Counted from the first letter of the stretch, positions 7,009 to 23,600 are shown. The stretch: DNA of 64,000 nt from Candidatus Eiseniibacteriota bacterium (GCA_942491735.1 CALOCN010000014.1:3147534-3211533), one strand, 5' to 3'. The notes: generated from the letters alone by a model not told the origin. Made by a program: numbers and translations.

Positions 7009-7980
7009 TTACGCGGTTCCGGGGCCCTCGTCCACCGCGCGCGGGCCCAGAAGCCACTCCTCGTCCACGGTGACGCTCCCCACCAGGGCCTCCATGGAGT
7101 CCATCCCGTGCCGGACCAGGTAGCCCCCCAGCCCGTCCACGATGCGGGCCGGGGTAGTGGGATCGGCGTAGACCGCGGTCCCCACCTGCACCGCCTTGCA
7201 CCCCGCGATGAGGAACTGCAGGGCATCGTCCGTGGTCCCGATGCCCCCGATCCCGATCACATCGCAGCCCAGGACCCGCAGTAGCTCCCAGCATTTGACC
7301 AGGGCCACCGGCCGGATGGCCGGACCGCTGAGACCACCCACACCCCGCTTGAGCACCGGGACCCGGCGCTCCACGTCCAGGGTCATCCCCAGCAGGGTGT
7401 TGATCGCGGCGAGACCGTCCGCCCCGGCATCCAGACAGGCCTTCCCCACATCGCTGATCCGGGTCACGTTCGGGGTCAGCTTGGCCCACACCGGCTTGCG
7501 CGTCACCGCACGCACCGCGGTCACCACCTGCGCGGCCAGGTGCGGGTGGGTGCTCATGTCGAGCCCCCCCTCCTTCACGTTGGGACAGGAGATGTTGAGT
7601 TCCAGGGCGTCGCAGCGGGGAACGGCGTCCAGGCGCTCGGCGAGGCGTGCGAAGTCCTCGGGCCCGTAGCCGCCGATGGAGACCACCACCCGCGTGTCGA
7701 TGCCCTCCATGAGCGGAAGTTTCTCGTCCAGATAGCGCTCGATCCCCACCCCCTCGAGACCAATCGAGTTGAGCATCCCGGCCGGGGTCTCGGCGATCCG
7801 ATGGGGCGGGTTCCCGGCACGGACCTCCTCGAAAATCGTCTTGGTGACCACCCCGCCAATCAGCGCCGGGTCCAGAATCGGCTTGAGGTCCGCGCCGTAA
7901 CCCCCTGTGCCGGAAGCAACCAGCACAGGATTCTTCAGAGCAAGTCCGCCGGCGACCATCGAGAGGTTCGGGCTATTCAT
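7009..7980 (-). CDS. pyrD: dihydroorotate dehydrogenase catalytic subunit (class 1B)
   Basis: The start is placed at MNSPNLSMVAGGLALKNPVLVASGT (class 1 DHOD N-terminus). It carries the NISCPN active-site Cys motif and sits next to pyrK. Confidence 0.85.
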   Translation of the reverse strand: MNSPNLSMVAGGLALKNPVLVASGTGGYGADLKPILDPALIGGVVTKTIFEEVRAGNPPHRIAETPAGMLNSIGLEGVGIERYLDEKLPLMEGIDTRVVVSIGGYGPEDFARLAERLDAVPRCDALELNISCPNVKEGGLDMSTHPHLAAQVVTAVRAVTRKPVWAKLTPNVTRISDVGKACLDAGADGLAAINTLLGMTLDVERRVPVLKRGVGGLSGPAIRPVALVKCWELLRVLGCDVIGIGGIGTTDDALQFLIAGCKAVQVGTAVYADPTTPARIVDGLGGYLVRHGMDSMEALVGSVTVDEEWLLGPRAVDEGPGTA

Positions 7981-8788
7981 GGGGCATCCGCTCCCAGTCG
8001 ATCCGGTGCGCCTCAACCACCGGGCCCTCCACGCACTGCATGAGGAACCGGGTTTCGTCGAGCAACGGAACCGCGCAGCCACGGCACAGGCCCAACCCGC
8101 ATCCGTACACCCCCTCCAGGCTCACCTGGCAGGCGAGGTCGTGTTCCTTGGCCAGTGCCGCGGTGTGTCGCAGGAGAATCTCGGGACCGCAGGCATAGAG
8201 CACCGGGTCGTCGGCCAGCCACTGGGGACGACCGGTCCGGATCGCGTCCAGCACGGTCCCGGCGTGCCCGAGGCTGCCGTCGTCCGTGGCCAGGAGCAGA
8301 TCCTGTTCCCCGATGCGATCGAGGGCAAAGAACAGGTCGCGGGAGCGGGCGCCGAAAGCAAACCGCAACGACGCATGCCCTTGATCCCGGAAGAGTCGGT
8401 ACAGGTAGAGAAGCGGCGCGGCGCCTCGGCCCCCCGCGACCAGAAGGGCGGGCCGGTCCGCATCCATGCGGTAGGGGGCGCCCAAAGGACCCAGGCAATC
8501 CACCGCGTCCCCTTCGCGCCATCGCGACATGGCCAGGGTGCCCTCGCCCACCACGCCGTAGAACAACTCGACGATGGCGGCGTCCGGGGTGCGTCGGAAC
8601 TCGACCACGCCGAAGGGGCGGCGAAAGATGGGATCCCGCGCCCCGCCGGTGCGCAGGTTCAGGTACTGACCGGGGAGCGGAGCGGGATAGTCGGGGGGGA
8701 AGGCCAGCTCGAGCCAGAAGAATCCGGGATGCGTCTCACGCTGGCGGTGCACACGCGCCCGGTCGAGTCGGGGTTCGACCGACGTCAT
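7973..8788 (-). CDS. pyrK: dihydroorotate dehydrogenase electron-transfer subunit
   Basis: 271 aa with an FNR-like fold (RPFGVVEF) and a C-terminal CGLGLCRGC 2Fe-2S cysteine cluster. Its stop lies 2 bp from the pyrD start. Confidence 0.85.
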   Translation of the reverse strand: MTSVEPRLDRARVHRQRETHPGFFWLELAFPPDYPAPLPGQYLNLRTGGARDPIFRRPFGVVEFRRTPDAAIVELFYGVVGEGTLAMSRWREGDAVDCLGPLGAPYRMDADRPALLVAGGRGAAPLLYLYRLFRDQGHASLRFAFGARSRDLFFALDRIGEQDLLLATDDGSLGHAGTVLDAIRTGRPQWLADDPVLYACGPEILLRHTAALAKEHDLACQVSLEGVYGCGLGLCRGCAVPLLDETRFLMQCVEGPVVEAHRIDWERMPHE

Positions 8789-8797
8789 AGACCTCCC

Positions 8798-11461
8798 CTA
8801 GTCCGCGCCGGGTTTGGCGTCGGGATCCTTGGTCGCCTTCGCGTCCTTCTTGGGCGTCTCATTTTTCTTCGGTGCCTCCGCGTCCTTCTTCGGCGCCTCC
8901 GCGTCCTTGGCCGGCTTGACCGCCGGCGGATCCTTCTTCGGCGGCTGGGTCGTCCGGGTGTTCCGCGGGGACTCCGGGCGGGCCACAGTCTCCGGGACGC
9001 CGGCCACCGGCGTCGCGCCCTTCATGACCGGAGTGTATCCGTCGGCCGGCACTTCATGGGGATCCAGCGTCTTGCCGCTGCGTCCCGTGGGAAGCGGTCG
9101 GACCGCCGGCACGGCCGCAACCGGTGCGGGGTCGCCATCTCCCGCCATGGCCGCTCCGGCGGTCACCGCGGCTCCGGTCGCCGCGGCCCCGGTCGCCGAG
9201 ACCGTGGCGGGATTCTGCACGACGCCATGACCGGCCGCATCGGCAGGCAGGGTGTTCTGCGCAACGGGTGCCGCTGCTCCCTGGGGGGGCGGGAGGGACG
9301 CCTCGCCCGGCTGACCGCCTTCGGCCGCATCCCGTCGTCTTCGCTCCAGGAGTTCCGCCTGGCGAGCCGCCATGCTCTGCGCCTCGGCGCTTGACTGGCC
9401 GGCCAGGGCGCCTGCCGCGGCCACCCCCGCGGCATCGCCCGTGCCGTTGGCCCCTGCCGTATTGGCTCCCGCTGGGTCGGCCGGGAGCCCCTGGGCTTCT
9501 CGCTGAGCCGCGGCCAGGGCCTGCTCGGCAAACTCCACGCTGTCCCGCGCCGCGAACAGGGCCAGGTTTTCCGGGTCCCGCAGCATGGCAAGGGTGGGGC
9601 CGTAGTAGTCCGCTTCCTCGGGTTCCCGAGCCGGACCCCGCAGGAGTCGCCGGGCGCGACGACCATACTCGGTGTTGGCATACTGGCGCATGACGTCGGC
9701 GTACTGGGCCCGGCCGCGTGCGGTGTCGGCCATCGCGTAGAACTGCACCCACGCCTGGGCCAACGCCGCCTTGCCCGCGTAGTCGGATCCGGCGAAATCG
9801 TTCTCGATCCCCCGATACTCCTCCAACGCGCGCTCCGGTTTGTCCTGCTGGAAGAGATAGAGTTCCGCCTTCATGAAACGCGCCTCGACCGCCGCCTTGT
9901 TCGCGGACCCCGACGTGTCCTGCGCCGTAGCCTGGAGCCGGGCCATGGTGTCCTTGAGGTTGCGCGCCTTGCGTTGCGCGGCGTCGGTGAAAGCCGAGCG
10001 TCCCTGGGTGGATACCTTCTCGTAGGCTGCTTGCGCCTCGGGAAAGTCCTCGAGGTAGATCTCGCAGGTGTAGCCGATCTGGTACTGGGCCTCGGCCGCG
10101 AACGGAGTGCGGGGATACTCCGCCACCACCTGCTCGTAGGCCTCGATCGCGTCCCACGGGCGCTCCATCTTGGCCAGCACCGTCCCCTCGCGCAGCATGA
10201 CCTTGGCCAGTTCACGTTCCGCTTCGTTGTTGATGTCACGCACCCGCTTGCGTTGCTGTTCCTGCTGGGCCTGGGCCTGGGCTCGCGCCGCGTTGGGGTC
10301 GACCTGGTTGGCCAACTCGGTCGGACTCGGCACGGTGACGCCCTGCGGCAGTTCGTCTTCGTTGTTGGGAAGGTTCGGATTCCGTGGGTCCGGGGACGGA
10401 TTCCCGGTGGTGTTGTTCGGGTTGTTCGGGTCGTTGGTGGCAAACAGGTTCGGATCGTTGGGGTTGGTCGAGGCCGGCGTCGCACCCCGCACGCCCAGGG
10501 AGTCCCCGTTGTCGGCCAGGAACTGCCGGGCCGCGATGGAGTCCTGGTAGGCAGCCTCCGCCGCGGCCTGGAGGTCCGCCTCCAGTTGCTGCCGCTCGGC
10601 CCCGCTCATCCGACCGCCGAAGACATTGGGATCGAGGTCCCGCGCCAAACCCACGTACAACCCATAGGCCTCGTCGAGACGCCCCTGTCGCTCGAAGCAG
10701 TCCCCCAGATGGAGAATCGCTTCCTGGCGTTGCTCGGCGTGGGGCGAACGGCCTGCGACCTGGTTGAAGTAGGACTCCGCCTCCTCGTACTGACCTCGTT
10801 CCAGGAGGACCCGGCCCAGACGCAGTCGCGCGTCCCACTCGCGGTCCCCACCCGGGTCGTCAGCGAGAAAGGCCAGAAAGGCGGCCTCCGCCGACTCGAG
10901 GTCCCGTTCGTTCCACTCCGCGTCGGCGAGCAGGTACTCCACTTCGTCCCGTTCGTCGAAATCCGGATAGGAGGCCAGCAACGTGGTCCAGGTCTCCGCC
11001 GCCGTCTCGTAGTTCTCCAGGGCAAACTCGGTTCGCCCCAGCCAGAACCAGGAATCGGGGACCAGGTTGCTGTCGGGAAAGCGCTGCGGGAAACGGGAGA
11101 ATCCCTGGCGCGCCGCGAGGTAGTCCCGCCGCCCGTAGTAGGCCTTGGCCCGCAGGAGATGGGCGTCGTCCTGCCACTTGCTGCCGGGGTAGTTGGCGAT
11201 CATCTTGTCGCACTTCTCGATGCAACTGTTGTAGAGGCCGGCCGAGCGGCTGCCGCGGGTGCCGCTCTGCGCGCTGAGGTTGGCGCCCGCGCGCGCCTCG
11301 GTGCGTGCCGCGCCCTCCGCGTCCCCGTAGTATTTCTTGGCGTGGTAGAAGGTGTTGTAGTAGGCGCACCCCCCGAGCGAGCCGGACAGGGACAGCACCA
11401 CCACCAGCGCGCCGGCGCCTCGAAGTGCTCTCCTGATCATCCTGCCCGGTGTCGCCATCAC
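8798..11461 (-). CDS. large TPR-repeat lipoprotein with low-complexity Asn/Pro-rich and Lys/Ala/Glu-repeat regions
   Basis: 887 aa. It has a signal peptide plus lipobox (LSGSLGGC) and many TPR-like helices. Internal NPNDPN...NPNNTTGNP and C-terminal KDAEAPKK repeats are visible in both the DNA and the protein. It ends 9 bp upstream of pyrK. Confidence 0.75.
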   Translation of the reverse strand: MMATPGRMIRRALRGAGALVVVLSLSGSLGGCAYYNTFYHAKKYYGDAEGAARTEARAGANLSAQSGTRGSRSAGLYNSCIEKCDKMIANYPGSKWQDDAHLLRAKAYYGRRDYLAARQGFSRFPQRFPDSNLVPDSWFWLGRTEFALENYETAAETWTTLLASYPDFDERDEVEYLLADAEWNERDLESAEAAFLAFLADDPGGDREWDARLRLGRVLLERGQYEEAESYFNQVAGRSPHAEQRQEAILHLGDCFERQGRLDEAYGLYVGLARDLDPNVFGGRMSGAERQQLEADLQAAAEAAYQDSIAARQFLADNGDSLGVRGATPASTNPNDPNLFATNDPNNPNNTTGNPSPDPRNPNLPNNEDELPQGVTVPSPTELANQVDPNAARAQAQAQQEQQRKRVRDINNEAERELAKVMLREGTVLAKMERPWDAIEAYEQVVAEYPRTPFAAEAQYQIGYTCEIYLEDFPEAQAAYEKVSTQGRSAFTDAAQRKARNLKDTMARLQATAQDTSGSANKAAVEARFMKAELYLFQQDKPERALEEYRGIENDFAGSDYAGKAALAQAWVQFYAMADTARGRAQYADVMRQYANTEYGRRARRLLRGPAREPEEADYYGPTLAMLRDPENLALFAARDSVEFAEQALAAAQREAQGLPADPAGANTAGANGTGDAAGVAAAGALAGQSSAEAQSMAARQAELLERRRRDAAEGGQPGEASLPPPQGAAAPVAQNTLPADAAGHGVVQNPATVSATGAAATGAAVTAGAAMAGDGDPAPVAAVPAVRPLPTGRSGKTLDPHEVPADGYTPVMKGATPVAGVPETVARPESPRNTRTTQPPKKDPPAVKPAKDAEAPKKDAEAPKKNETPKKDAKATKDPDAKPGAD

Positions 11462-11678
11462 GATGCGCGGTCTCCCTCTACCAGTAAGCCAATATACGAC
11501 AGATGCTTAGATTCTCCTACGGGGGGAGGGTCCCCCAACGAGCTACAACACACCCTTCAACCCTTGTACTACCCGTGAATCTCCTCGGAGTTCCCATCCG
11601 AAACCGAACCAACGCGGGCGCTAACACCCGCTCCCGTGGTCGGTTGGCCCCACCGCCCTGTTGGGTCACAATAGCCCG

Positions 11679-13127
11679 ATGAACAAGCGTCACCTCTGGG
11701 TTGCCGGCGCCCTGGCCGGGCTGTTCCTTGGCGGGTGTGCTTCCGGGCCCAAGCCCCGGGGGCTTGCCGGGGTCGGCGCCTGCGCGGTGGGGCCCACGGA
11801 GAACCAGGCACCGCGCCCCCTGCGGGTCCTGCTTTCCGACGCGGTGCTCCCCGAGCACGCGCCCAATCCCACCAACGAGGCGGAGCGTCTGGTCTTTCGG
11901 CAGCTCTACGCCGGTCTGGTGCGCTGGGACTGCGACGGCAAGGCCCAACCCGACCTGGCGCGGTCCTGGGAAGGGCGCGAAGCCGGTCGCATCTGGACCT
12001 TCACCCTGGAGTCGGAGGCCCGTTTCCATGACGGATCACCGATCGACGCCGGGTCGGTGCGCCGGGCCTGGACCGCGAACGCGGCTCGCCCCCGGGGTGG
12101 CGCCGGCGTCTGGGCCTGGGTGGATCCGGAGTCGGTGACCGTGGTGGATTCCCGGCGCCTGGAGGTACGGCTGCATCGCGCCCTCGAGGACGCCCCCATC
12201 CTGTTTGCCCACCCGGGACTGGCCGTCACCGGCGAGGCGACCCATCGGGATTGGCCGTCGGGATCGGGCCCCTACCGGGTGGCTTCGGTGTCCGCGAGCC
12301 GGTTGTCCCTGGAGCCGGCGCTCGACGACAAGGGACGCCCCCGCGCCCTGTCCCCCATTGACTTCGCCCTGCGGCCGGGGGATGACGTGCGGGACTGGCT
12401 GGCCGAGGCCGACCTCGCCCTCACCCGCCTCCCCGCGGTGCGGGAGTTCGCCGGGACGCTGGGTTTCGCCGAGGCCGACCTCGGTCCCACCCACGCCTAT
12501 GTGCTGATCTCCCCCCGGCTCGACGGCGCGGAGCCGGCCAGGATGGACCCCGGGTTGCGTGAGGACCTGGTCCGCGACGCGACCGGGAACGCGCGGGCGC
12601 CCGGGTTCGACCTGTTGTGGATTCCGTGGCAGGAGAGCCCGCAGCCTACCGAAACACTCCTGGGCACCCGCAACCGCATCGTCTTTGGCCCCGACGCCGA
12701 GGCGCGCCGGTTGGCCGAGCGTCTCAGCGCAGTGACCCGGGCCGGCGACACCGGCGCCACCGACGACGTTCTGGCCCGCGTCTTTCCCGATGCCAACGAC
12801 ACGGAGCCGTCCGCGGTGGAGTTGACATCCGAGGCGCTGGCGCGGGCGGTGGGGGACGGGCAGGACCGCGCCTATGTCCTGGCCCTTCGCCGATTCGACT
12901 CCGGATACGCCACCGCGATCGCCGGTCTCAGCGGCGCCCCCTGGTTGGCCGGCCTGCCGGTGATGCGTGGCGTGGCCGATCCCCAGGCGCTGCAGGGGGC
13001 CCTGGCCCCGCTTCTGGAGACCCGCACCACGGTGCTGTATCGCGGGGACCTCGGGCCCTTCCGGATCGACGGCGACGGGACCCTCCGGTTGGAAGCGGCC
13101 GGCGGGCCGGTGGAGCCGTTGCCGTGA
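11679..13127 (+). CDS. family-5 solute-binding-protein-like lipoprotein
   Basis: MNKRHLWVAGALAGLFLGGCASG gives a lipoprotein signal. LARSWEGREAGRIWTFTLESEARFHDGSPIDAGSV matches the SBP_bac_5 signature. Its stop overlaps the kinase GTG start (GTGA). Confidence 0.75.
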   Translation: MNKRHLWVAGALAGLFLGGCASGPKPRGLAGVGACAVGPTENQAPRPLRVLLSDAVLPEHAPNPTNEAERLVFRQLYAGLVRWDCDGKAQPDLARSWEGREAGRIWTFTLESEARFHDGSPIDAGSVRRAWTANAARPRGGAGVWAWVDPESVTVVDSRRLEVRLHRALEDAPILFAHPGLAVTGEATHRDWPSGSGPYRVASVSASRLSLEPALDDKGRPRALSPIDFALRPGDDVRDWLAEADLALTRLPAVREFAGTLGFAEADLGPTHAYVLISPRLDGAEPARMDPGLREDLVRDATGNARAPGFDLLWIPWQESPQPTETLLGTRNRIVFGPDAEARRLAERLSAVTRAGDTGATDDVLARVFPDANDTEPSAVELTSEALARAVGDGQDRAYVLALRRFDSGYATAIAGLSGAPWLAGLPVMRGVADPQALQGALAPLLETRTTVLYRGDLGPFRIDGDGTLRLEAAGGPVEPLP

Positions 13128-14875
13128 GTCTCCGGCTACGCATTCTCCTGGGGTCCTGTCTGTTGGCGTTGATCCCCATTCTCGTGCTCGGGATCGGGGT
13201 GCGGCACGAGGTCACCGCCCGGCTCTCGGGCCAGTACACCGAGAACGTCGAGGCCATGGCGGCCTACCTGGAGACCGAGTTCACCGAGGAGTCCTCGGAG
13301 CTCGAGGTCAAGCTCACCGCCCTCGCGGCGGAGATCCGCGAGGACAACCGTTTTCGGCTGGCCCTGCTCGACGAGGCGGGCGGCGCCGACGAGGCTCCCT
13401 ACCTGCGGGACTTTGCCCAGCGGGCCATGGGACTGATGGGTCTCGCGGTGCTCCAGGTCCAGGATGCGCGGGGACGGATCCTGAGTTCGGGTCACTTCCG
13501 CAACGAGTACGGTCGGGAAGAACTCCAGGTGCTCCGGGCCCTGGCCGCCGCTCCCCAGGGCACCGGCCTCCTCAACGCCCGCACCCCCGAGGGAACGCTG
13601 CTGGGGTTGGCCCGGGTGGACTCGTTGCGGATGGGCGCGACGCGTTTGTACCTGGTCGCCGGCATCCCCATCGAGCGCCGCTTCCTACGGGGGCTCGCTC
13701 CACGCGGGTCGGTCACCCTCGTGCACCCGGGCGGCGTGCGCTCCAGCGACAACACACTCGCGGCGCGCATGGATTCCGTCCTTGCCGCGGGGGGGCCCTG
13801 GCGCGATGCCCTGCCCACGACCGCCTATCGGGTCCTCACCCACCCGGTTCCCATGGTGGTCGCATCGGGCGAAGACGCGAAGCTGGTCCAGGCGCAGTTC
13901 GTGGTGAGCTATCCCCTCGATGCCCTCACCCGGACCACCCGCAACCTGACCCTGTGGCTGCTGGTCGCCGGCGGGGTGGTCGCGGCCGGTGCGTTGGGCT
14001 TCGCGATCTGGCTTTCCTTCCGCCTGAGTCGACCCATCGCGGAGTTGGCCCGGGCCACCACCACCATCGACCTGGACCGGCTGGAGACCCGGCTCCCGGC
14101 CGGCCGCAGCGACGAGGTGGGCACCCTGTCCCGGTTCCTGGTCGACATGACCCGGCGTCTGCGGGCCAGCGCGAGCCGGTTGCAACAGGCGGAACGCCGG
14201 GCCACCCGGGGCGAGCTGGCGCGCCAGATCAATCACGACATCCGCAACGGCCTCACCCCCATCCGCAATGTGTTGCGGCATGTGTCCTCGGTGGCCGAGG
14301 AGTCCCCGGATCAGCTTCCCGCGGTCTACGCGGAACGCCGGGCAACGCTCGAGTCCAGCGTGGAGTACCTGGAGACCCTGGCCGCCAACTACGCGCGCCT
14401 CTCCCCCCGGATGGTGCGGGAGGCGACCGATGTGAACGGGGTGATCCGCGAGGCGGTCCACGAGGACGACGGCGCCCGGGTGCAGTTGCGGCTGGAGTCG
14501 CGATTGCCCCGGGCCATGGTGGACCCGGTTTCGTTGCGGCGCATCGTGGAGAACCTGGTGCGCAACGGGATCGAGAGCCTCGAGGGCGGGGGCACGGTCA
14601 CGGTGACCACGGAGTCCGCGGAAGACACGGTGCGGGTCACGGTGCGCGATACCGGAGTGGGGATCCCGGAGGAAGAGCAGGACCGGGTCTTCCAGGACTT
14701 CTTCAGCACCAAGGAGAGCGGGTCCGGGTTGGGGCTCTCCATCGTGCGCCGCCTGGTTTCGGACAATCATGGACGACTGACATTGACCAGCACCACCGGA
14801 GCGGGAACCTCGGTCAGCTTCACCCTGCCCCGGGCGACGGGTGCGGCGGCGAGTCCCGGCAAGGAGCCTTCATGA
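13124..14875 (+). CDS. sensor histidine kinase (two TM segments, ~270-aa periplasmic domain, HAMP, HisKA, HATPase)
   Basis: GTG start in VSLRLRILLGSCLLALIPILVLGI (TM1). TM2 is LTLWLLVAGGVVAAGALGFAIWL. The H-box is ELARQINHDIRNGLTP, and the N and G boxes are VRNGIESL and DTGVGIP...GSGLGLSIV. Its stop overlaps the regulator ATG (ATGA). Confidence 0.85.
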   Translation: MSLRLRILLGSCLLALIPILVLGIGVRHEVTARLSGQYTENVEAMAAYLETEFTEESSELEVKLTALAAEIREDNRFRLALLDEAGGADEAPYLRDFAQRAMGLMGLAVLQVQDARGRILSSGHFRNEYGREELQVLRALAAAPQGTGLLNARTPEGTLLGLARVDSLRMGATRLYLVAGIPIERRFLRGLAPRGSVTLVHPGGVRSSDNTLAARMDSVLAAGGPWRDALPTTAYRVLTHPVPMVVASGEDAKLVQAQFVVSYPLDALTRTTRNLTLWLLVAGGVVAAGALGFAIWLSFRLSRPIAELARATTTIDLDRLETRLPAGRSDEVGTLSRFLVDMTRRLRASASRLQQAERRATRGELARQINHDIRNGLTPIRNVLRHVSSVAEESPDQLPAVYAERRATLESSVEYLETLAANYARLSPRMVREATDVNGVIREAVHEDDGARVQLRLESRLPRAMVDPVSLRRIVENLVRNGIESLEGGGTVTVTTESAEDTVRVTVRDTGVGIPEEEQDRVFQDFFSTKESGSGLGLSIVRRLVSDNHGRLTLTSTTGAGTSVSFTLPRATGAAASPGKEPS

Positions 14876-16233
14876 GCGTTGTTCTTGTTGTCGACGATGT
14901 CCCGGCCCTGTGCGAGCAGTACGCCTACGATCTGAAACGGATCGGCGGCTACGGGACGCTCACCGCGACCTCGGGGCGCCAGGCCCTGGACATGCTGGAG
15001 AGCGAGGCGGTGGACTGCATGGTCCTGGACCTGGAAATGCCCGGCATGGACGGGTTCGAGGTGCTGACCCGCCTCGCGGAGGAACGGCGCACCCTCCCGG
15101 TCATCGTCTACACCAGCACCGGGGACTTCGATCGCTGTGTCCGGGCGGTCAAGCTGGGAGCCCACGGGTTCATCGACAAGTCGGAACCGGTGGAGCGGGT
15201 GGCGCACGAGATCGCCAACGCCCTGGAACGGTCGCGGCTGCGGGGCGAGGTGTCGGAATTGCGGCGGCGCCTGGGGTCGGAGTCCCCTCTCCTGGGGGAA
15301 AGCCCGGCCATGGAGACCCTACGGACCCGGATCGGCAAGCTGGCCCCCATCCCGAGCCCGGTCCTGATCCTGGGGGAAAGCGGAACCGGCAAGGAACTGG
15401 TGGCGCGGGCGCTGCACACCGGCAGCGGCCGCAAGGGGTCCTTCCTGGCCATCAACTGTGCCGCGCTCCCGGAGAACCTGGTGGAGAGCGAGCTCTTTGG
15501 CCATGAGAAGGGCGCGTTCACCGGGGCGGAACGGCTTCGCCGCGGTGCGTTCGAGTCCGCGGCGGGAGGGACGCTCTTTCTCGATGAGATCGGCGAGCTG
15601 CCCCAGGCCATGCAGGCCAAGATGCTGCGGGTGCTGGAGGAATCGGTGGTGACCCGGGTGGGGGGCACGCGCACCGTCGCGGTCACCGCGCGGGTGGTGG
15701 CGGCGACCAACCGCAACCTGGATCACGAGGTGACCGAGGGGCGCTTTCGCGAGGACCTGCTCTACCGGCTCAACGTGCACACGGTGGCGGTCCCGCCGTT
15801 GCGGGAGCGGCTGGGGGATGTGCCGCTGTTGGCGGCGCGGTTCGTGGAGTCGGTCTGCGCGAACCTGGGCGTGCGGGCCAAGAACCTGGACCCGGACGCA
15901 ACGCGGGTGCTCAAGGCGTACGACTGGAAACGCAACAACGTGCGCGAGCTGCGCAATATCGTGGAGCGCATGGTCATCGCCGCGGACGGGGAAACGATCG
16001 AGGCGGAGCATGTCCCGGACGAGGTGCTGGAAGGCGGACCACGCCCCCAGGGGGGCGGGCCCGCGGTGACGCTCAAGGATCGCAAGCTGGAGGCGGAGCG
16101 CGGGATCCTGGTGGAGGCGTTGGAGCGCAACGACTGGCACATCACGAATACCGCGAAGGAGCTGGGGCTGGCGGACCATGCGAGCCTGCTCAAGATCATG
16201 CGGCGACATGACCTGAAACGCCCGGGGTCGTAG
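14872..16233 (+). CDS. sigma-54-dependent response regulator (NtrC family: REC + AAA+ + HTH)
   Basis: Receiver domain (VLVVDD...LDLEMPGMDG), Walker A (GESGTGKE), GAFTGA motif (GHEKGAFTGAE) and a C-terminal Fis-type HTH. Confidence 0.9.
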   Translation: MSVVLVVDDVPALCEQYAYDLKRIGGYGTLTATSGRQALDMLESEAVDCMVLDLEMPGMDGFEVLTRLAEERRTLPVIVYTSTGDFDRCVRAVKLGAHGFIDKSEPVERVAHEIANALERSRLRGEVSELRRRLGSESPLLGESPAMETLRTRIGKLAPIPSPVLILGESGTGKELVARALHTGSGRKGSFLAINCAALPENLVESELFGHEKGAFTGAERLRRGAFESAAGGTLFLDEIGELPQAMQAKMLRVLEESVVTRVGGTRTVAVTARVVAATNRNLDHEVTEGRFREDLLYRLNVHTVAVPPLRERLGDVPLLAARFVESVCANLGVRAKNLDPDATRVLKAYDWKRNNVRELRNIVERMVIAADGETIEAEHVPDEVLEGGPRPQGGGPAVTLKDRKLEAERGILVEALERNDWHITNTAKELGLADHASLLKIMRRHDLKRPGS

Positions 16234-16286
16234 GGAACGAACCCCGGGCGCATCGTACGGTCTGGACCAGGGACCCTATCCCTGTA

Positions 16287-18632
16287 CTAGAACCCGAACC
16301 CTCCCGTGGGGACGTACACTTTCTTCCATGCCGTCCAGTCACTGTACTGCGTGCCGCTGGTCACGGCACGGACCTTGTACTTCCACCACTGGCCCTGGGT
16401 GGGCGTGGCGTCGTTGTAGCTCGTCGTCGACGAAGTGAACGTGGCCGGGGTTCCCGAGGGCCAGGGCTGACGCTCGATCTCGTAGTGGTCGATGGTCCCG
16501 CAGGTTGCCGTCGAGGCACTCCAGGACACGTTAACCACGCCGGGAATCGCGCCCAGGGTGAGGCCGCTGGGGCTTGTTGCGTACGGAATCGTGATCTCCA
16601 ACTCCCCGGTTCCGATCGAGAGCACACTGCTCGCGTTCTCCGCGAACACCTCGTAGTCGTGCAGGGTGGTGGAACAGGAAGAGACGGATGCATCCTGGTA
16701 GTACGTATTGGTGGTGCGGGCGAGCTCGGCCCCATCCCGGTACACGACGTATTCGTCCAGGCATCCGTTCGAGGGAACCGCGTCCCAGGTCAGCGTGACC
16801 GGGAACCCCGCCGAAGCGGTCGCGTCGGCCAGGTTGGTCGGTGCATCCACCGACGTGGCGTTCAGGTTGGTCGCCGAGGATACCCGGTCCACCTCGTCCA
16901 CCGACTTGACCTGGTAGGTCACGGTCGTGCAGCCCGCAGCCCCGGTGTCCTCATACTCCAGGGCGAGCCCGGTGTAGATGGGGGTCCCTCCCCCGTTTCG
17001 ATACAGGCGGTACTCCGTCACTTGCGAGTAGGTCCCATCCGCGGCGTTCCAGGCTATCGTGGGAGGGTTTCCCACGGTCTGAGTCACCGTGCTGGGAGGG
17101 TACGGATCGGTTCGATCGGCAACGTAGGTGCCGCCGACCTGCACCGAACCCAGCGTTGCGTGCGTAGCGGTCACGGAGAAGGTGTGCACACCCTCGGGTG
17201 CGTTTCCTCCTTCATAGACCAACGCCACGTCAACGACCTCGGTCTGCCCTCCCCCCACGCTGATGCTGGAGACCATGCTCAGCGAGAAGCCCGTCGGTGG
17301 CGTACCGGAGAGGCTGAAGAGCTCGGCTGCACCACAGCTGTTGTTGGTCAGATGGAGATCGAAGGGAACGGTCACCAGGCCGGACTTGGGTAATCCGGCG
17401 TTGACCACGCGATTCTCATCGAACGAGGCGGTTGGACCCGCCGGCGTGTAGGTGACGTCGACCGTGGCGCCGCTGGAGTCGCTGCTGACAAAGTCGATGG
17501 TGATCCCATCCAGGGTGATCGACGAGTTGGTGGCGTCGAGAATCGCCTCCAACTCGGACTCGAGGCCATCCTCGCGCTGGACGAGGACCTTCGAGAAGTA
17601 GTCCACTCCCCACACGCTGGTGTTCCCGGTCATGGAGCGGAAAAAGCTGGTGCCATCGAAGGATCCCGCCACCGGGTATCGATAGGACAGGTAGAGACTG
17701 TAAGTCCCGCCGTCGACACGCAGGACCTGGGGGTCCGTCCCCGGGGTCGCGGCCAAGGGGGCGATGGCCTGGCCCGAGACATCGCAGCTGATGACTTCCG
17801 GGCTCACCCACCCCGCCTGCACCTTGTGGTACCCGTGGAAGTGTCGATGAGGGAGGTTGTTCCCACCGAGAACCGGGGACCCCATTACGCAGGACAGGTC
17901 ACGGTAGCCTACCCCGACGTTGCCGAGGTTACCCGAGGGAACCGAAGGATCATGGTCGTCCGCATGCCGAATCAGGAAATTGTCCCGGATCCGGTGTCCC
18001 AGTTCATGGGAAAAGAATCCTGGAATATGCCAGGCATTGACCTCGATGTTCATCTCACCACCGGCCGCCTCCCCGGCCTGGCCCCCGCACTCGTTCTGGG
18101 CATTCGGGGTCACCCAGATCACCCGTTGGAACTGACCAGGAGTCTCCAGGTCGTAGCCTTCCGTCAGGGCCTGGGCGATCGCCTTTTCCTGCCAGCACGG
18201 CTTGTCGCATGGGCTGTCGTCGATTTCGCCGCAATCCTCGTTCGGGTCGAGGGTCGACATCACATAGGGGCCAAGAACCGTCCCGCTTATCTGTAGTGCG
18301 CCGTACGACATCTCCTCGAACAGCTCAGCCACCGAGAAGTCGTTCTCGGAGTCCCACAACGTTTCGAGGTAGGTGCCGGCGCTTGCGTCGAACATGATCT
18401 CGTCAATGATGGTGGCTGCCTCGTCCCCATCTGCGGCGGGAGACCAATCGGAGCCCACCGGCTCCACCAGGACCACCGCGACACTCATGGTATCGACCGA
18501 GGCGAGACCGAAGAGTCCGGGGGCGCTCCCGGGTCGGGTCGGAATTCCGTTCTCGTCGCTCTCGCCACAGGAGAGAGTCAACACGGCCAACAACAGCGTC
18601 AGGGGAATCAACAGTCGTTTGGAGTACCACAT
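16287..18632 (-). CDS. secreted zinc metallopeptidase lipoprotein (HExxH) with C-terminal Fn3/Ig-like beta-sandwich repeats
   Basis: The start is placed at MWYSKRLLIPLTLLLAVLTLSCGES (lipobox). The HELGH zinc motif is present, with repeated Thr/Ser-rich beta-rich modules (YRLYRNGG..., YVVYRDGAEL...) resembling Fn3 C-terminally. GC looks somewhat lower than in neighbouring genes. Confidence 0.75.
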   Translation of the reverse strand: MWYSKRLLIPLTLLLAVLTLSCGESDENGIPTRPGSAPGLFGLASVDTMSVAVVLVEPVGSDWSPAADGDEAATIIDEIMFDASAGTYLETLWDSENDFSVAELFEEMSYGALQISGTVLGPYVMSTLDPNEDCGEIDDSPCDKPCWQEKAIAQALTEGYDLETPGQFQRVIWVTPNAQNECGGQAGEAAGGEMNIEVNAWHIPGFFSHELGHRIRDNFLIRHADDHDPSVPSGNLGNVGVGYRDLSCVMGSPVLGGNNLPHRHFHGYHKVQAGWVSPEVISCDVSGQAIAPLAATPGTDPQVLRVDGGTYSLYLSYRYPVAGSFDGTSFFRSMTGNTSVWGVDYFSKVLVQREDGLESELEAILDATNSSITLDGITIDFVSSDSSGATVDVTYTPAGPTASFDENRVVNAGLPKSGLVTVPFDLHLTNNSCGAAELFSLSGTPPTGFSLSMVSSISVGGGQTEVVDVALVYEGGNAPEGVHTFSVTATHATLGSVQVGGTYVADRTDPYPPSTVTQTVGNPPTIAWNAADGTYSQVTEYRLYRNGGGTPIYTGLALEYEDTGAAGCTTVTYQVKSVDEVDRVSSATNLNATSVDAPTNLADATASAGFPVTLTWDAVPSNGCLDEYVVYRDGAELARTTNTYYQDASVSSCSTTLHDYEVFAENASSVLSIGTGELEITIPYATSPSGLTLGAIPGVVNVSWSASTATCGTIDHYEIERQPWPSGTPATFTSSTTSYNDATPTQGQWWKYKVRAVTSGTQYSDWTAWKKVYVPTGGFGF

Positions 18633-18955
18633 GGCAATCACCCTCTTGATTGGTAGATGGATGGCGGCCACGCGCCTTGAGTCCTGGGGTGTTTGCCTGG
18701 GTGTTGGGGACGGCAGGGCCAAGTAGCCGCCTACGATTTCGAGCACTCTCGCGCTCTCATACACACGCTAGCAAGCGACAGTATGCTCGGCTCTGCCCGG
18801 CTCGCATAGTCCCTTCGTTGTGCTCACGCATAGCGGAGTGTGTTCAGATGGACACCTCCGCCTGTGTCCGCCTGAACACGAGCGCTGGAACCCGCAACGC
18901 AAGCTCCGATCGCAACCAATTGATAGGACACTGATTAGGAAAGCAAACATCTATT

Positions 18956-18971
18956 TGGCCCGACTCCTGCT
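18956..18971 (+). promoter_or_regulatory. candidate sigma-54 (-24/-12) promoter TGGCCCGACTCCTGCT upstream of the TPR and OMP genes
   Basis: GG and GC elements sit at consensus spacing (TGGCAC-N5-TTGC), with one mismatch in each half. It lies ~105 bp upstream of the 19078 ATG, and two sigma-54 activators are encoded in the window. Confidence 0.3.
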
Positions 18972-19077
18972 TTAACCAACTCCCATAGCCCACAACGGGC
19001 CGCTTCGGAGGATCCACTCCGGAGCACACCGAACTTCGGCGACGCGTTCCGGCGCCGGGTTCACGGAGGGAGTCAAC

Positions 19078-20019
19078 ATGTCCAAGTCCACCACCCCCAT
19101 CGAAGCCAACCCCAAGACCGTACGGGCGGTGAGCCTCTCGCTCCTGCTTGGCTCCGGATTCCTCTTTGCCGGTGTCGGCGACGTCGCCGGCACCCAGGAC
19201 CCCGAGGTCCCGCGGACCTCGGACATCGTCTACGACCAGACGCAGCAGTACCCGCTCACTCTCGACGAGGCCATGGAGAGCTACCGGGAAGGCAACTACG
19301 AGGAAGCGCAGCTCTTCTTCTCCGAGTACGTCCGCCTGCGGCCCCAGGTGGCCTGGGGTCACTACATGCTCGGTCTGTGCGCCTGGAAGTCGGGTGACCT
19401 GGAGGCGGCGGAGCAGAGCCTCCTGCGTTCCGCCGAGCTGGGCCCGGAGAACCCCAAGGCCCGCATCAACCTGTGCCGCGTGCTCATGGACGCGGGACGG
19501 CACGAGGAAGCCCTGGATCACTGCCTGCTCGCCCAGGGAACCTGGCCCGAGAACGCCGAGGCGCACCGGGTGGCCGGACGCGCGCATCAGAACCTGGGAC
19601 AGCCCAACGAGGCAATCACCGCCTACCAGCACGCGCTGATCGCGGATCCCGAAGACGCCTGGTCCATGAACAACCTGGGCCTGGTCTACATCCACCAGGG
19701 TCGCTACGAGCAGGCCCTGGAACCGCTCGCCCGCGCCACCGAGCTGCGCAACGAGCCGGTCTTCTACAACAACCTCGGTATTGCTCTCGAACGAAGCGGC
19801 TATCCGGTGGCGGCGCGTGACGCCTATGCCGAAGCGGTGCGGCGCTCCGCGTCCTACACCCGGGCGGAAGACAACTTCAACCGCCTTGAGTCCATGGATG
19901 GATTGGTGTCCGGGGACCCCGGGCTCCCCATCCTCGCCGACCGCTTCGAGACGACCATCGGCACCTGGAGATCCTCCGAGGTGGCCAGTACGAACACCGC
20001 GACCGACTCCGATCGCTGA
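19078..20019 (+). CDS. TPR-repeat protein (secreted or membrane-anchored)
   Basis: 313 aa with an N-terminal hydrophobic segment and at least five TPR-like repeats (AWGHYMLGLC..., AEAHRVAGRAH..., AWSMNNLGLVY...). Confidence 0.7.
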   Translation: MSKSTTPIEANPKTVRAVSLSLLLGSGFLFAGVGDVAGTQDPEVPRTSDIVYDQTQQYPLTLDEAMESYREGNYEEAQLFFSEYVRLRPQVAWGHYMLGLCAWKSGDLEAAEQSLLRSAELGPENPKARINLCRVLMDAGRHEEALDHCLLAQGTWPENAEAHRVAGRAHQNLGQPNEAITAYQHALIADPEDAWSMNNLGLVYIHQGRYEQALEPLARATELRNEPVFYNNLGIALERSGYPVAARDAYAEAVRRSASYTRAEDNFNRLESMDGLVSGDPGLPILADRFETTIGTWRSSEVASTNTATDSDR

Positions 20020-20105
20020 GCTTCCTCGAGAGCAACCCCCCGGGTCCTTCCGCCTTCGGGCGGGGGGGCCCGGTCTTTTTGAAACCCGTTACCAAGGAGG
20101 AACCC

Positions 20106-20579
20106 ATGCGAAGCCGAATTTTCCGCCGAGCCTTATCGATATCCACCCTGGCCGCGGCGTTGAGCCTTCCCGTCGTTGCCCACGCGCATCCCTTCGGTCT
20201 GGGAGTGATGGTCGGTGAGCCCACCGGGCTCTCCGGGAAGCAGTGGCTTGGTTCCCACTCCGCGGTCGACTTCGGGGCCTCGTGGGCCCTGGAGAAGAAC
20301 GAGAACCTGCACCTGCACGCCGACTACCTCTGGCACTCGGCCGGGTTCATCAGCTCATCCGAACCCGAGCTGGGAGCGTACATCGGAGTGGGAGGGCGCG
20401 TGCTCTTCCTGGAGAACTCGGAGGACCGGATCGGGGTCCGGGTGCCCCTGGGAGTGAGCTATCAGTTCTCACAGAACCGATTCGAGCTGTTCTTCGAGGT
20501 GGCTCCGGTCGTGGACCTGGTCCCCGATACCGAGACCGACCTCGGGGGCGGGATCGGGCTCCGCTACCAGTTCCGGTAG
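20106..20579 (+). CDS. small outer-membrane beta-barrel protein (signal peptide, alternating hydrophobic strands)
   Basis: MRSRIFRRALSISTLAAALSLPVVAHA is a signal peptide, followed by amphipathic beta-strand patterning and a C-terminal LRYQFR. An alternative start lies at 20079. Confidence 0.55.
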   Translation: MRSRIFRRALSISTLAAALSLPVVAHAHPFGLGVMVGEPTGLSGKQWLGSHSAVDFGASWALEKNENLHLHADYLWHSAGFISSSEPELGAYIGVGGRVLFLENSEDRIGVRVPLGVSYQFSQNRFELFFEVAPVVDLVPDTETDLGGGIGLRYQFR

Positions 20580-20635
20580 GGGGGACACCGGGCTTCGCCG
20601 CCGTGCGGCGCACCTCCCGGGTACACTCGTGCCCC

Positions 20636-20668
20636 GACGCGCCCGGGGGGGTGCAGAGGCCTCGGCCA
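20636..20668. terminator. GC-rich hairpin between convergent OMP and carB genes (candidate bidirectional terminator)
   Basis: GAGGCCTCGGCCAAACGGCCGGGGCCTC is an inverted repeat followed by ATTCTATTC. Confidence 0.35.
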
Positions 20669-20686
20669 AACGGCCGGGGCCTCATT

Positions 20687-23600
20687 CTATTCGCTGCCTA
20701 CCTTGACCGGTCTCGCTTCCCCCATGCTCTGCAACGCCCGCACCTGGAACCCGCCCTTGAGAATCGCCTCGATCCCGCACACCGCCGCCGCCGCCCCGGG
20801 GAGCGTGGTCACGCAGGGCACACCCTGTTCCATGGCGGCAAGGCGGATCACCCGGTCGTCGGACTTGGACTTGCGACCCAGGGGGGTGTTGAGCACGAGG
20901 TGGACCTTGCCGTCGCGGATCATGTCCACCGCGGTCGGGCTGCCCTCCCCGACCTTGTGGATGGCGGTCACCGGGACGCCGTTCATGCGCAGGAACCGCT
21001 CCGTGCCCTCGGTCGCGACCAGATCGAACTGCATTGAAACAAGCTGCTTGGCCAGGAACACCACCGCACGTTTGTCCGCGTCGCGCACGGAGAGAAACAC
21101 GGTGCCGCTGGTGGGAAGCGGCTCCCCTGCCGCGGCCTGGGCCTTGGCGTACGCTTCGCCGAAGTCCGCCCCGGTGCCCATCACTTCTCCGGTCGACTTC
21201 ATCTCCGGGCCCAGGAGGGTGTCCTCGCCGGGAAAGCGGTCGAATGGGAGCACCGGTTTCTTGACGCTGACCAGGTCGCGGCGGGACATGGTTTCGGGGG
21301 TGTCCTTCAGCGACCCACCCAGGAGCGCCTTCACGGCAAGAGGAACCAGCGGAATCCCCGCCGCCTTGCTCACGAAGGGCACGGTGCGGGACGCACGCGG
21401 GTTGGCCTCGATGATGTAGATCGCATCCCCCTTCACCGCGTACTGCACGTTGATGAGACCACACACCTTGAACGCCCGCGCCAGTTGTGCCGTCATGTCC
21501 TTGAGGAGCTGCTCGGTGGTCGCGCCAATGCTGTAGGGCGGGGTGAGGCAGGAACTGTCCCCCGAATGCACGCCGGCTTCCTCGATGTGCTCCAGCACCG
21601 CGCCCACGATGACCGTCTTGCCGTCGCTCACCGCGTCAACGTCCAGTTCCACCGCGTCCTCCAGGAACGCGTCGAGCAGCACCGGCGCCTGGGGAGAGAT
21701 GGTGATGCCCTCGGCGATGAGGAGTTCCAGTTCCGTGCGGGCATAGATCGTGCGCATCCCCTGGCCGCCCAGGACGAACGAAGGACGGACCAGCACCGGG
21801 TAGCCAATCCGCTCCGCCTCCTGGATGAGGTCTTCGCGCCGGGTGGCGATGCGGCTCCTGGGCTGGGTGAGCCCCAGGCGCTGGATGAGCGCCCGGAAGG
21901 TGTCCCGGTTCTCGGCGTCGTCGATGGCCTGGGGCTGGGTTCCCAGGATGGGGATACGGGCCCGCTCGATGGGCCGGGCCAGCTTGAGCGGGGTCTGTCC
22001 GCCGAACTGCAACACCACCCCGCCCGGTCGCTCCTTCTCCAGCACGTTGAGGACATGTTCCTCGGTGAGCGGCTCGAAATAGAGCCGGTCGCTGACGTCG
22101 TAATCGGTGGAGACGGTCTCGGGGTTGGAGTTGATGAAGATGACGGGACGCCCGGAGGCCCGGATGGACTGGGCCGCCTGGACACAGCAGTAGTCGAACT
22201 CCACCCCCTGGCCAATGCGGTTGGGGCCGGAGCCCAGGACCGCCACCGCGCTCTCGCCCAGGGGTTCCCCCTCGTCCTCGGACTCGTAGGTGGAGTAGAA
22301 GTACGGGGTCTCGGCCGGGAACTCCGCGGCGCAGGTGTCCACCGCCTTGAAGGTGGGGCGCACGTCGAGGCGGAGCCGCAGGGCGCGAACGTCCGGTTCG
22401 GGAAGGTCGATGAGCCCGGCAATCCACGCGTCGGTGAGCCCCTGGCGCTTGGCCCGCCGCATGAGCGTCGCCGCGGCTTCCGTGTCGTTGGCCTTGAGCA
22501 GCTTGGGCAAGCGAGTGCGGATGGCCTGTTCCGTGGCGATGATCTCGGCCATGCGATCCAGGAACCACAGGTCCACCCCGGTGAGGTCCGCCAGTTGCTG
22601 TGGGGTGTGTCCGCGGCGCAGGGCGTGGAGAAGCAGGAACGGTCGTCGCCAGGTGGGCCGGGCCAGGTTCGCGTCATCCAGGGCACCCCGAGTGAACGCG
22701 GTGCCGCTGATCAAGGTGTCCACGTTGTCGATCTCGAGGCTCACCAGGGCCTTGATATAGGCCTCGGTGAAGGTACGACCAATGGCCATGACCTCCCCCA
22801 CCGACTTCATGCGCGTGGTCAGAGTGTCGTCGGCGAGAGGGAACTTGTTGAAGTTCCAGCGCGGGACCTTCACCACCACATAGTCCAGGCTGGGCTCGAA
22901 GCAGGCGGGGGTGACCCGGGTGATGTCGTTGGGAATGGCATCGAGCGTCTCGCCGCTGGCCAGACGGGCTGCGATCTTGGCGATGGGAAACCCGGTCGCC
23001 TTGCTGGCCAGGGCGCTGGAGCGGGAGACCCGCGGGTTCATCTCGATGATGACGATGCGCCCGTCCCTGGGGTTGAGGCCGAACTGGACGTTGGAGCCGC
23101 CGGTGTCGACCCCTACCGCGCGCAGGGTTTCCAGCGAGTAGTCGCGCAGGCGTTGGTACTCGCGGTCCGTGAGGGTCTGGATAGGGGCCACGGTGACCGA
23201 GTCCCCGGTGTGTACCCCCATGGGGTCCAGGTTCTCGATCCCGCACACGATGACCGCGTTGTCCGCGCCGTCCCGCATGACCTCGAGCTCGAACTCCTTC
23301 CAGCCGGTGAGGTCCTCCTCGATGAGCACGGTGGAAACCGGCGAGAGACGCAGGGCATCCTTGGTGATGCGGGTCAGTTCGTCGTGGTTGGTGGCGCGTC
23401 CGCCCCCCGCTCCGCCCAGGGTGAAGCTGGGACGGAGGATGACCGGGAAGCCGATCTCGTTGGCGAGTCGGGTTGCTTCTTCCAGGGAACGGGCGAACCC
23501 GGATTCGGGGAGAGGAATGCCGGCCTCGCGCATGGTGTCGCGGAAACGATCCCGGTCTTCGGCCTTCTGGATCGCTTCCGGCGTGGCGCCGATCATCTTG

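Follow-up and report, generated by a model that had tools for sequence, protein, structure and literature searches.

The DNA analyzed here is a 64,000-nucleotide stretch of a Candidatus Eiseniibacteriota genome (GCA_942491735.1, CALOCN010000014.1:3147534-3211533; GC content 66.9%), hereafter the window, which carries a pyrimidine biosynthesis (pyr) operon in two parts. Pfam assignments and open reading frame (ORF) calling guided by GC content at third codon positions (GC3) place pyrR-pyrB-pyrC-carA-carB and pyrK-pyrD-pyrF in collinear order, all on the minus strand. Between carB and pyrK lie seven genes, some of them on the opposite strand, that encode a small outer-membrane protein (OMP), a 313 amino acid tetratricopeptide repeat (TPR) protein (TPR313), a lipoprotein with a HExxH motif, a sigma-54 activator, a histidine kinase, a solute-binding protein (SBP) and an 887 amino acid TPR lipoprotein (TPR887). 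This order, the strand assignments and the seven-gene separation had been described in an initial annotation made from the sequence alone, and our analysis bears them out, coordinates included. That annotation went on to treat all seven genes as one accessory block. Our analysis instead assigns TPR887 to the ancestral operon and restricts the insertion to the other six genes. The genes are as follows (L-numbers are our labels for recovered loci and contigs):

29209-29781, minus strand: pyrR, PyrR/uracil phosphoribosyltransferase-type regulator (Pfam Pribosyltran, UPRTase)
28266-29225, minus strand: pyrB, aspartate carbamoyltransferase (Pfam OTCace_N, OTCace)
26844-28208, minus strand: pyrC, dihydroorotase (Pfam Amidohydro_1, DHOase)
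24773-25972, minus strand: carA, carbamoyl-phosphate synthase small subunit (Pfam CPSase_sm_chain, GATase)
20687-23920, minus strand: carB, carbamoyl-phosphate synthase large subunit (Pfam CPSase_L domains, MGS)
20107-20579, plus strand: small outer-membrane beta-barrel protein (OMP), 157 amino acids, with signal peptide (Pfam OMP_b-brl)
19078-20019, plus strand: TPR313 (Pfam TPR_2, TPR_16 and related)
16287-18632, minus strand: HExxH (HELGH) lipoprotein (lipobox LTLSCG and HELGH in the translation; C-terminal FN3-like repeats)
14872-16233, plus strand: NtrC-type sigma-54 activator (Pfam Response_reg, Sigma54_activat, AAA_lid_14, HTH_8)
13124-14875, plus strand: HAMP histidine kinase, 583 amino acids (Pfam HAMP, HATPase_c; gene call in L008)
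~11679-13127, plus strand: SBP_bac_5 family-5 solute-binding protein (Pfam; 482 amino acid gene call in L008)
8798-11461, minus strand: TPR887, lipobox Cys32 followed by the AYYNTFYHAKKYY motif (Pfam, NCBIfam)
7973-8788, minus strand: pyrK, electron-transfer subunit of class 1B dihydroorotate dehydrogenase (Pfam DHODB_Fe-S_bind)
7009-7980/8082, minus strand: pyrD, catalytic subunit of class 1B dihydroorotate dehydrogenase (Pfam DHO_dh; 323 amino acid gene call in L008)
6295-6996, minus strand: pyrF, orotidine monophosphate decarboxylase (Pfam OMPdecase)

Homologs of pyrK carry the name of the class 1B dihydroorotate dehydrogenase electron-transfer subunit in JGI, and the operon-head pyrR has homologs of 56-76% identity in related loci. 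The pyrK and pyrD genes overlap. TPR887 leads into pyrKDF, as the initial annotation had proposed, and the 9-nt distance that it gave from the TPR887 stop to the pyrK ATG holds. Downstream of pyrF lie murJ and genes for a GT4 glycosyltransferase, a UDP-sugar dehydrogenase, an epimerase and a UDP-GlcNAc 2-epimerase.

A scan of a genome collection with PyrK returned one locus only, in a Candidatus Eisenbacteria metagenome-assembled genome (70% identity). The best PyrK match among 5.8 billion proteins had 71% identity, and one protein match (P0119) bears the phylum name Candidatus Eisenbacteria. A recorded protein with 100% identity to TPR887 comes from a 3.36-Mb contig. The window lineage is little sampled and lies in or near Candidatus Eiseniibacteriota. 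In all seven PyrK-centered loci (39-70% identity) a large TPR (YfiO-like) gene stands immediately 5' of pyrK. One of the related loci, the 1.4-Mb contig L002, has pyrR-pyrB-pyrC-carA-carB, an 871 amino acid TPR gene and pyrK-pyrD-pyrF contiguous on one strand, the TPR gene stop overlapping the pyrK start. The TPR orthologs were aligned, and a TPR-centered scan of a metagenome collection yielded 79 loci; the resulting synteny set comprised 86 loci, drawn mostly from metagenome contigs without taxonomy, onto which the window proteins were mapped by tblastn and in which adjacencies were counted.

This comparison places the TPR gene within the operon. In 68 of 72 testable related loci, pyrK starts at most 200 nt past the TPR stop, often overlapping it. 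Immediately 5' of the TPR gene we find carB (36 loci), pyrC (24) or pyrR (2), the 24 pyrC-TPR loci forming a sub-lineage whose operon is without carAB. PyrK identity ranges over 27-71% and GC content over 0.42-0.76 among these loci, so the TPR-pyrK linkage is both old and broad. The frequent stop/start overlap between the TPR gene and pyrK in relatives suggests that the two are usually translationally coupled. Since the TPR gene adjoins both pyrK and carB or pyrC across related loci, TPR887 is an ancestral member of the pyr operon of this group and not cargo. The inclusion of TPR887 in the accessory block is thereby overturned, as it is pyrK-adjacent in 68 of 72 loci and directly follows carB or pyrC in 60; for this gene, the synteny comparison returned an order that is universal in the group, the outcome that the initial annotation had named as pointing to an ancestral arrangement rather than an insertion.

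There are exceptions to this pattern. L088 (6445-9569) holds the TPR-pyrK pair alone among sulfatase and glycoside-hydrolase genes; pyrD and the remaining pyr genes are missing from its surroundings. L050, L052 and L061 have no pyrK after the TPR gene, and in the latter two the TPR gene stands directly after pyrR. These exceptions could reveal whether the link is to PyrK specifically.

The true insertion is therefore a segment of ~9.2 kb (11462-20686) with six genes. No homologs of the SBP, kinase, HExxH lipoprotein, TPR313 or OMP were found by tblastn in any other locus, and the sigma-54 activator gave weak generic matches only, in L007 and L049. We built a neighbor-joining tree from concatenated PyrK and PyrD (553 ungapped columns, 200 bootstraps), in which the window groups with L002, L009, L010, L011 and L015 at 84% bootstrap. 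In all five of these partners, as well as in the outgroups L016, L005, L013 and L014, carB adjoins the TPR gene. Because the window nests among relatives in which carB abuts the TPR gene, the insertion is derived. Thus, the proposed insertion into a core operon stands as a derived, lineage-specific insertion of six genes, some of them on the opposite strand, and fails in its inclusion of TPR887.

Elsewhere in the synteny set, carB and the TPR gene are apart only in L001, L003 and L060 (by ~1-6 kb), and probably in L004, whose retrieved sequence does not extend to carB. L001, L003 and L004 fall outside the tree group of the window, with L001 and L004 pairing at 92%, and the contents of the junction in these three loci are unlike those of the window: an N-glycanase, an OPT transporter, a protein kinase and giant proteins with type A sorting domains of the T9SS (type IX secretion system). 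The simplest reading is that the window insertion is derived and independent, and that the carB/TPR junction is a recurrent landing site.

The sister clade formed by these three loci also has an interrupted pyrD/pyrF junction (L001 11741-14756, L003 11810-13806, L004 11825-13294), which holds an opposite-strand Acetyltransf_6 gene and/or a DUF1232 gene. The pyrF of L004 appears fragmented, matching in two pieces.

We then considered the origin of the six genes through their composition, with the 64-kb window as the reference. GC3 and codon adaptation index (CAI) were:

Core genes: GC3 0.76-0.89, CAI 0.52-0.79
SBP, kinase, activator and TPR313: GC3 0.87-0.89, CAI 0.71-0.76
HExxH lipoprotein: GC3 0.81, CAI 0.62
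OMP: GC3 0.67, CAI 0.38
DUF5677 gene (between carA and carB, described below): GC3 0.45, CAI 0.25

By GC3 and codon usage, nothing separates the SBP, kinase, activator and TPR313 genes from the core set. Tetranucleotide distance, calculated in 3-kb windows, reaches ~z = 2 at most over 8-12, 16-19 and 24-27 kb, with comparable excursions at 53-56 and 60-63 kb. The initial annotation had suggested that such a comparison be made; it shows a block that is mostly host-like and deviates no more than other parts of the window, which goes against a recently acquired island and fits an old insertion or a rearrangement within the genome; an ancient rearrangement was the alternative that the annotation had offered. 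Pfam and NCBIfam scans of the seven genes detected no integrase, transposase or other mobility gene; no tRNA lies at the block, the only one in the window being 25 kb away (45792-45865), and the two block boundaries share no repeat longer than 10 nt. The host-like composition together with the lack of mobility signatures indicates that this is not a classic recent island; for the six-gene block, an old insertion is the most likely origin, or else an intragenomic translocation that moved native envelope and signaling genes here.

The rival that survives best holds that the 9.2-kb block is a recent foreign island, acquired by horizontal transfer from another phylum. We regard this as unlikely given that four of the six genes match the core genes, that integrase, transposase, tRNA and boundary repeats are all lacking, and that the tetranucleotide deviation does not exceed that of other parts of the window, even though no relative has the block, the HExxH lipoprotein comes close to being an orphan, the GC3 of the OMP gene is atypical and the spacers are AT-richer. 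Comparison with known genomic islands and insertion hot-spots is similarly two-sided. As in those systems, one junction is variable among relatives, being empty in 36 loci and holding different genes in at least four lineages; the block is present here and absent at the same site in relatives; and the inserted genes are opposite-strand, accessory envelope, signaling and secreted-protein genes. Unlike genomic islands, the window block lacks an integrase, a tRNA target and direct repeats, and it is mostly host-like in composition.

Two spacers and a hairpin bear on how the divided operon is transcribed (none of them is assigned to a strand):

20656-20683: GC-rich hairpin of 12 bp where the OMP and carB genes converge (terminator scan and reading of the sequence)
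18633-19077: divergent intergenic spacer of 445 bp, GC 0.60 (sequence, GC)
11462-11678: divergent intergenic region of 217 bp between SBP and TPR887, GC 0.60 (sequence, GC)

The 445-bp spacer, which had been described as AT-richer, is indeed so (GC 0.60 against 0.67 for the window). The hairpin at 20656-20683 is likely a bidirectional terminator that ends the carB transcript, and the region 11462-11678 is predicted to hold a promoter for TPR887-pyrK-pyrD-pyrF. The latter region was created by the insertion: where relatives lack it, hardly any spacer parts the TPR gene from the carB or pyrC that precedes it. Given the hairpin between carB and OMP and the divergent spacer between SBP and TPR887, the operon is expected to be expressed as two units, and it probably now consists of two transcription units, the upstream one presumably starting with pyrR and running through carB.

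We propose a composite explanation for the locus, which we consider probable. The ancestral pyr operon of the group would have had the order pyrR-pyrB-pyrC-(carA-carB)-[TPR lipoprotein]-pyrK-pyrD-pyrF, with one non-pyr gene already inside it, namely that of a large outer-membrane-type TPR lipoprotein probably related to PorW/SprE. In the window lineage, ~9.2 kb of DNA with six genes in three transcription units would then have entered the carB/TPR junction: the SBP-kinase-activator genes (plus strand), the HExxH lipoprotein gene (minus strand) and the TPR313-OMP pair (plus strand). In the sister clade, the same junction would have been opened independently with other genes, which would make it a permissive slot. 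The operon would now be read as a first unit, pyrR through carB, that ends at the hairpin just 3' of carB, and a second unit, TPR887-pyrK-pyrD-pyrF and on into murJ, that starts from a new promoter in 11462-11678. An old insertion or intragenomic translocation would account for the inserted DNA, rather than the recent arrival of a foreign island.

Several points weigh against this explanation. Most of the related loci are metagenome fragments without taxonomy, and the group is only loosely delimited by them. The tree is a two-protein neighbor-joining tree that supports the window placement at 84% and the grouping of the sister clade at only 36%. The HExxH gene (CAI 0.62) is slightly off and the OMP gene (GC3 0.67) atypical with respect to the host, and the present loci do not tell a translocation from an old horizontal transfer. 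As for transcription, the two units, the promoter and the terminator are all predictions: the hairpin at 20656-20683 has no clear U-tract on the carB side, and a scan of 7.5-24.5 kb gave no match to the sigma-70 consensus.

The composite explanation takes the six genes to be derived. The opposite polarity, in which the six-gene arrangement is ancestral and each relative with a tight carB-TPR junction has lost the block, would demand many independent precise deletions, since carB adjoins the TPR gene in 36 loci, every tree outgroup included. The host-like composition of the block would fit such a history, and the junction is also occupied in L001, L003, L004 and L060, but the genes found in those occupied junctions are unrelated to those of the window. 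We therefore judge an ancestral block with repeated loss to be very unlikely.

Less probable still is a single island that comprises all seven genes, TPR887 included, and that was inserted between an originally adjacent carB and pyrK. In the Bacillus subtilis-type operon, the order is pyrR-pyrP-pyrB-pyrC-pyrAA-pyrAB-pyrK-pyrD-pyrF-pyrE, and carB (pyrAB) and pyrK are adjacent; seven non-pyr genes do separate the two in the window. However, carB directly adjoins pyrK in no locus recovered through pyrK or the TPR gene, nor in the window, and the placement of the TPR gene directly 5' of pyrK in 68 of 72 loci and after carB or pyrC in 60 makes this reading extremely improbable; for the TPR gene, the synteny data refute it. 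Finally, a chimeric join in the metagenome-assembled contig, by misassembly or misbinning, has a negligible chance of being the explanation even though the source is evidently a metagenome-derived genome, because two Logan contigs from different sequencing runs reproduce both block junctions in independent assemblies, one spanning SBP/TPR887-pyrK (L008, run ERR9670067, 100% identical to window 6419-15402, 8,984 bp) and the other TPR313-OMP/carB (L089, run ERR9669565, 99.9% identical to window 18716-22003, 3,288 aligned columns).

Regarding the content of the inserted block, the SBP gene overlaps the start of the kinase gene by 4 nt (gene call in L008), and the SBP is probably the periplasmic sensor partner of the kinase. 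The kinase and activator genes likewise overlap by 4 nt, and the trio makes up a standard sigma-54-dependent two-component module with a binding-protein partner. As in NtrC-type two-component systems, the activator combines a receiver domain, a sigma-54 AAA+ domain and a Fis-type helix-turn-helix, and its gene lies beside that of a sensor kinase.

The HExxH lipoprotein matches the NCBIfam M6 metalloprotease domain weakly (31.6 bits, cut-off 110.8). Among 1.84 billion representatives it has one full-length relative (43% identity) and about six for the protease domain, the remaining matches falling on its FN3-like repeats, which are common; a word-indexed homolog search with this protein returned essentially only itself. 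To judge from these searches, the HExxH lipoprotein is a rare family. The OMP match to OMP_b-brl is sub-threshold (22 bits), and the gene has a ribosome-binding site with an ATG at 20107 and a 157 amino acid gene call in L089.

It is plausible that the two-component system controls the HExxH protein, as a surface or secreted protease, together with the TPR313-OMP pair. A sigma-54-like -24/-12 site (TGGCCC-N5-CTGCT, 9 of 11 positions) is located at 18956-18971 within the 445-bp spacer, 107 nt 5' of TPR313, and is a conceivable target for the adjacent activator. Across the window such sites are not enriched (11 matches against 20 expected by chance), and the site is to be taken only as a lead. 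On the plus strand between the TPR313 stop and the OMP start, a very strong hairpin at 20040-20073 (15 bp, 12 of them G-C, followed by a T-run) could be a terminator or attenuator that separates the two genes. A sub-threshold match to DUF1874 RNA (29 bits, gathering score 42), the only one from Rfam, coincides with this hairpin; we rejected it as probably due to chance.

The upstream half of the operon is interrupted too, which the initial annotation had overlooked. The pyr gene order is kept but broken at three junctions, as the pyrC/carA and carA/carB junctions of the window also hold further genes:

25969-26815, minus strand: small insertion between pyrC and carA (143 amino acid ORF and ABM-domain ORF)
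26384-26815, minus strand: ORF of 143 amino acids without family match (GC3-supported)
25969-26256, minus strand: ABM-domain ORF of 95 amino acids (GC3-supported; Pfam ABM)
23917-~24783, minus strand: DUF5677 gene between carA and carB (Pfam DUF5677, E = 2.4e-9)

In most relatives these junctions are tight, with median gaps of 11 nt for pyrC/carA (18 loci) and 72 nt for carA/carB; in L002, carA and carB overlap with no gene between them. The window genome is thus unusually invaded. The 143 amino acid ORF and the ABM-domain ORF are host-like in GC3. The DUF5677 gene lies in operon orientation, its stop overlapping the carB start, and has a GC content of 0.54, a GC3 of 0.45 and a CAI of 0.25, against ~0.67, 0.87 and 0.72 for its neighbors. 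No DUF5677 homolog was found when the window proteins were searched against the related loci by tblastn. By composition it is the sole clearly foreign gene in the operon, and it looks like a recent horizontal acquisition within a core operon. This gene falls outside 8798-20686, the block that the initial annotation had singled out as a possible island. PADLOC made no defense-system assignment for DUF5677, the 143 amino acid ORF or the HExxH protein.

Turning to the identity of the ancestral TPR lipoprotein, all family members share a conserved lipobox cysteine (Cys32 in TPR887) followed by the motif AYYNTFY[LH]A[KR]. The AlphaFold2 model of TPR887, with residues numbered from the lipobox cysteine (ORF residue 32), has a predicted local distance difference test (pLDDT) score above 90 in both TPR blocks. 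It comprises a TPR block (1-245), a 35-residue helix (256-290), a disordered Asn/Pro-rich region (291-357), a further helix (358-373), a second TPR block that extends to ~625, and a tail that is largely disordered except for a helix at 659-683. In Flavobacterium johnsoniae, the ninth repeat of the TPR lipoprotein SprE (PorW) contains a break, the "Finger Region", in which ~100 residues that separate two helices are unresolved; the C-terminus of the protein is disordered (PMC10994853).

TPR887 resembles PorW/SprE (PDB 8gl8 chain I) in being an N-terminal lipoprotein of similar size (887 against 870 amino acids), in its modeled scaffold, where a disordered interruption of roughly 100 residues flanked by helices is followed by more TPRs and a disordered tail, and in its matches to NF052312 (NCBIfam), which are collinear and N-terminally anchored. 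For the family member in L007, which aligns within the TPR family at 99.95% hhalign probability, the best PDB match is SprE (E = 9.8e-11); the alignment falls into two collinear segments, one on either side of the finger region. Foldseek against the PDB (350,542 chains) ranked SprE second, with low TM-scores of 0.23 and 0.30; other TPR solenoids score about as high as SprE, and we discarded Foldseek as a discriminator. Further observations speak against a PorW assignment. TPR887 reaches 54 bits on NF052312 and the other family members 39-197, all below the curated cut-off of 250; unrelated proteins rich in generic TPR_6 repeats reach 100-150 bits on the same model, although their matches are non-collinear; and a profile of the central domain alone fits CpoB and BamD better than SprE. 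On balance, we consider the chances that this family is PorW/SprE to be about even.

Two further observations, on protein secretion, count in favor of the PorW/SprE identity. A PorU-like giant protein with a Peptidase_C25 domain and a C-terminal FlgD_ig domain is encoded at 58811-64000 (minus strand) and runs past the window end; it scores 177 bits against the model of the T9SS sortase PorU, whose cut-off is 420. Proteins encoded in the carB/TPR slot of L001 and L004 carry T9SS sorting domains (TIGR04183). Given the PorU-like protein and this TIGR04183 slot cargo, type IX secretion is plausible in this group. Close to the C25 gene are those of a GWxTD-domain TPR protein (50866-53208, minus strand) and a TPR-containing sigma-54 activator (52908-55979, minus strand), and the three genes hint at a type IX-like secretion or sorting system in the window genome. 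We found no literature report tying porW/sprE to pyrK, pyrD or other pyr genes, nothing on the neighbors of Fjoh_1051 or on T9SS in Eisenbacteria, and no publication describing a linkage of a TPR gene to pyrK.

Several orthologs are labeled "TolA-binding protein" in JGI, and TPR887 exceeds the cut-off of the YbgF model TIGR02795 (129 bits, cut-off 90.1) through several partial repeat matches. Against the BamD/YfiO model TIGR03302 it scores 73-75 bits, below the cut-off of 81.4 and over residues 73-145 only. The repeat type (TPR_6/YfiO) is indeed the one found in CpoB/YbgF and BamD (YfiO). However, TPR887 is three to four times longer than CpoB/YbgF (~260 amino acids) and differs from it in having a lipobox, two TPR blocks and long disordered regions, and its architecture is far larger than that of BamD/YfiO, a lipoprotein of ~240 amino acids with five TPRs. 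No tol-pal or bam gene context is present in the window. Since the "TolA-binding protein" and YbgF labels rest on repeat type and not on size, lipobox or gene context, they are probably wrong for this family.

In one family member (L037, 2411-4375), a C-terminal TonB domain (TIGR01352, 49 bits) replaces the disordered tail. This suggests that the tail region of the family may mediate envelope contacts.

Like the Bacillus-type operon, the window has pyrR, pyrB, pyrC, carA, carB, pyrK, pyrD and pyrF in this order, all on one strand; its operon begins with a PyrR-type gene and encodes a class 1B dihydroorotate dehydrogenase, with pyrK beside pyrD. It differs in having no pyrP, pyrE or detectable PyrR attenuator, in the TPR lipoprotein gene that this group constantly carries between pyrK and carB or pyrC, and in the three further insertions of the window genome. 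No Rfam match to a PyrR-binding attenuator RNA was obtained in 1-34000 at E-values up to 1, and no ARUCCAGAGAGGYU-like loop motif was found near the operon; in the window lineage, PyrR may regulate via a diverged element or act only as a uracil phosphoribosyltransferase.

The gene context downstream of the operon is also conserved. In 20 related loci a UDP-glucose/ManNAc-type dehydrogenase gene comes after pyrF, usually with an NAD-dependent epimerase gene next, and many loci add UDP-GlcNAc 2-epimerase and polysaccharide export genes (loci with the pyrF-UDP-sugar context include L002, L005, L010, L014, L022-L028, L044, L048, L058 and L073); in the window, the corresponding stretch runs from 6295 down to 64 on the minus strand. 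This arrangement suggests a conserved super-cluster that joins pyrimidine synthesis to UDP-sugar and surface-polysaccharide genes. One could go further and propose that the TPR gene is the PorW/SprE ortholog of Eisenbacteria and their neighbors, and that its stop/start coupling to pyrKDF, along with the conserved UDP-sugar genes downstream, is functional, linking the supply of uridine monophosphate and UDP-sugars to the building of secretion and surface-glycan machinery, rather than neutral hitch-hiking. We regard this combined proposal as unlikely, though the persistence of the TPR-pyrK pair in L088 without other pyr genes hints that the link is to PyrK itself.

The split of the operon is in itself ordinary genome plasticity. 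It illustrates that a core biosynthetic operon can survive division into two halves, here probably transcribed apart, and that the carB/TPR junction repeatedly serves as a landing site; for the study of operon evolution this is useful, though no surprise. Of greater interest is the conserved TPR-pyrK linkage, as the gene of an envelope TPR lipoprotein is embedded in a pyrimidine operon across a large, mostly uncultured group and over deep divergence. If the TPR protein is PorW/SprE, it would offer a handle on secretion systems outside Bacteroidota and would raise the question of why its expression is tied to pyrimidine synthesis.

Just past the operon head, separated from pyrR by a divergent aldo-keto reductase gene, an 824 amino acid protein encoded at 31070-33544 (plus strand) has a weak C-terminal HNH endonuclease motif as its sole recognizable feature, along with a marginal PADLOC match to DpdF (19 bits).

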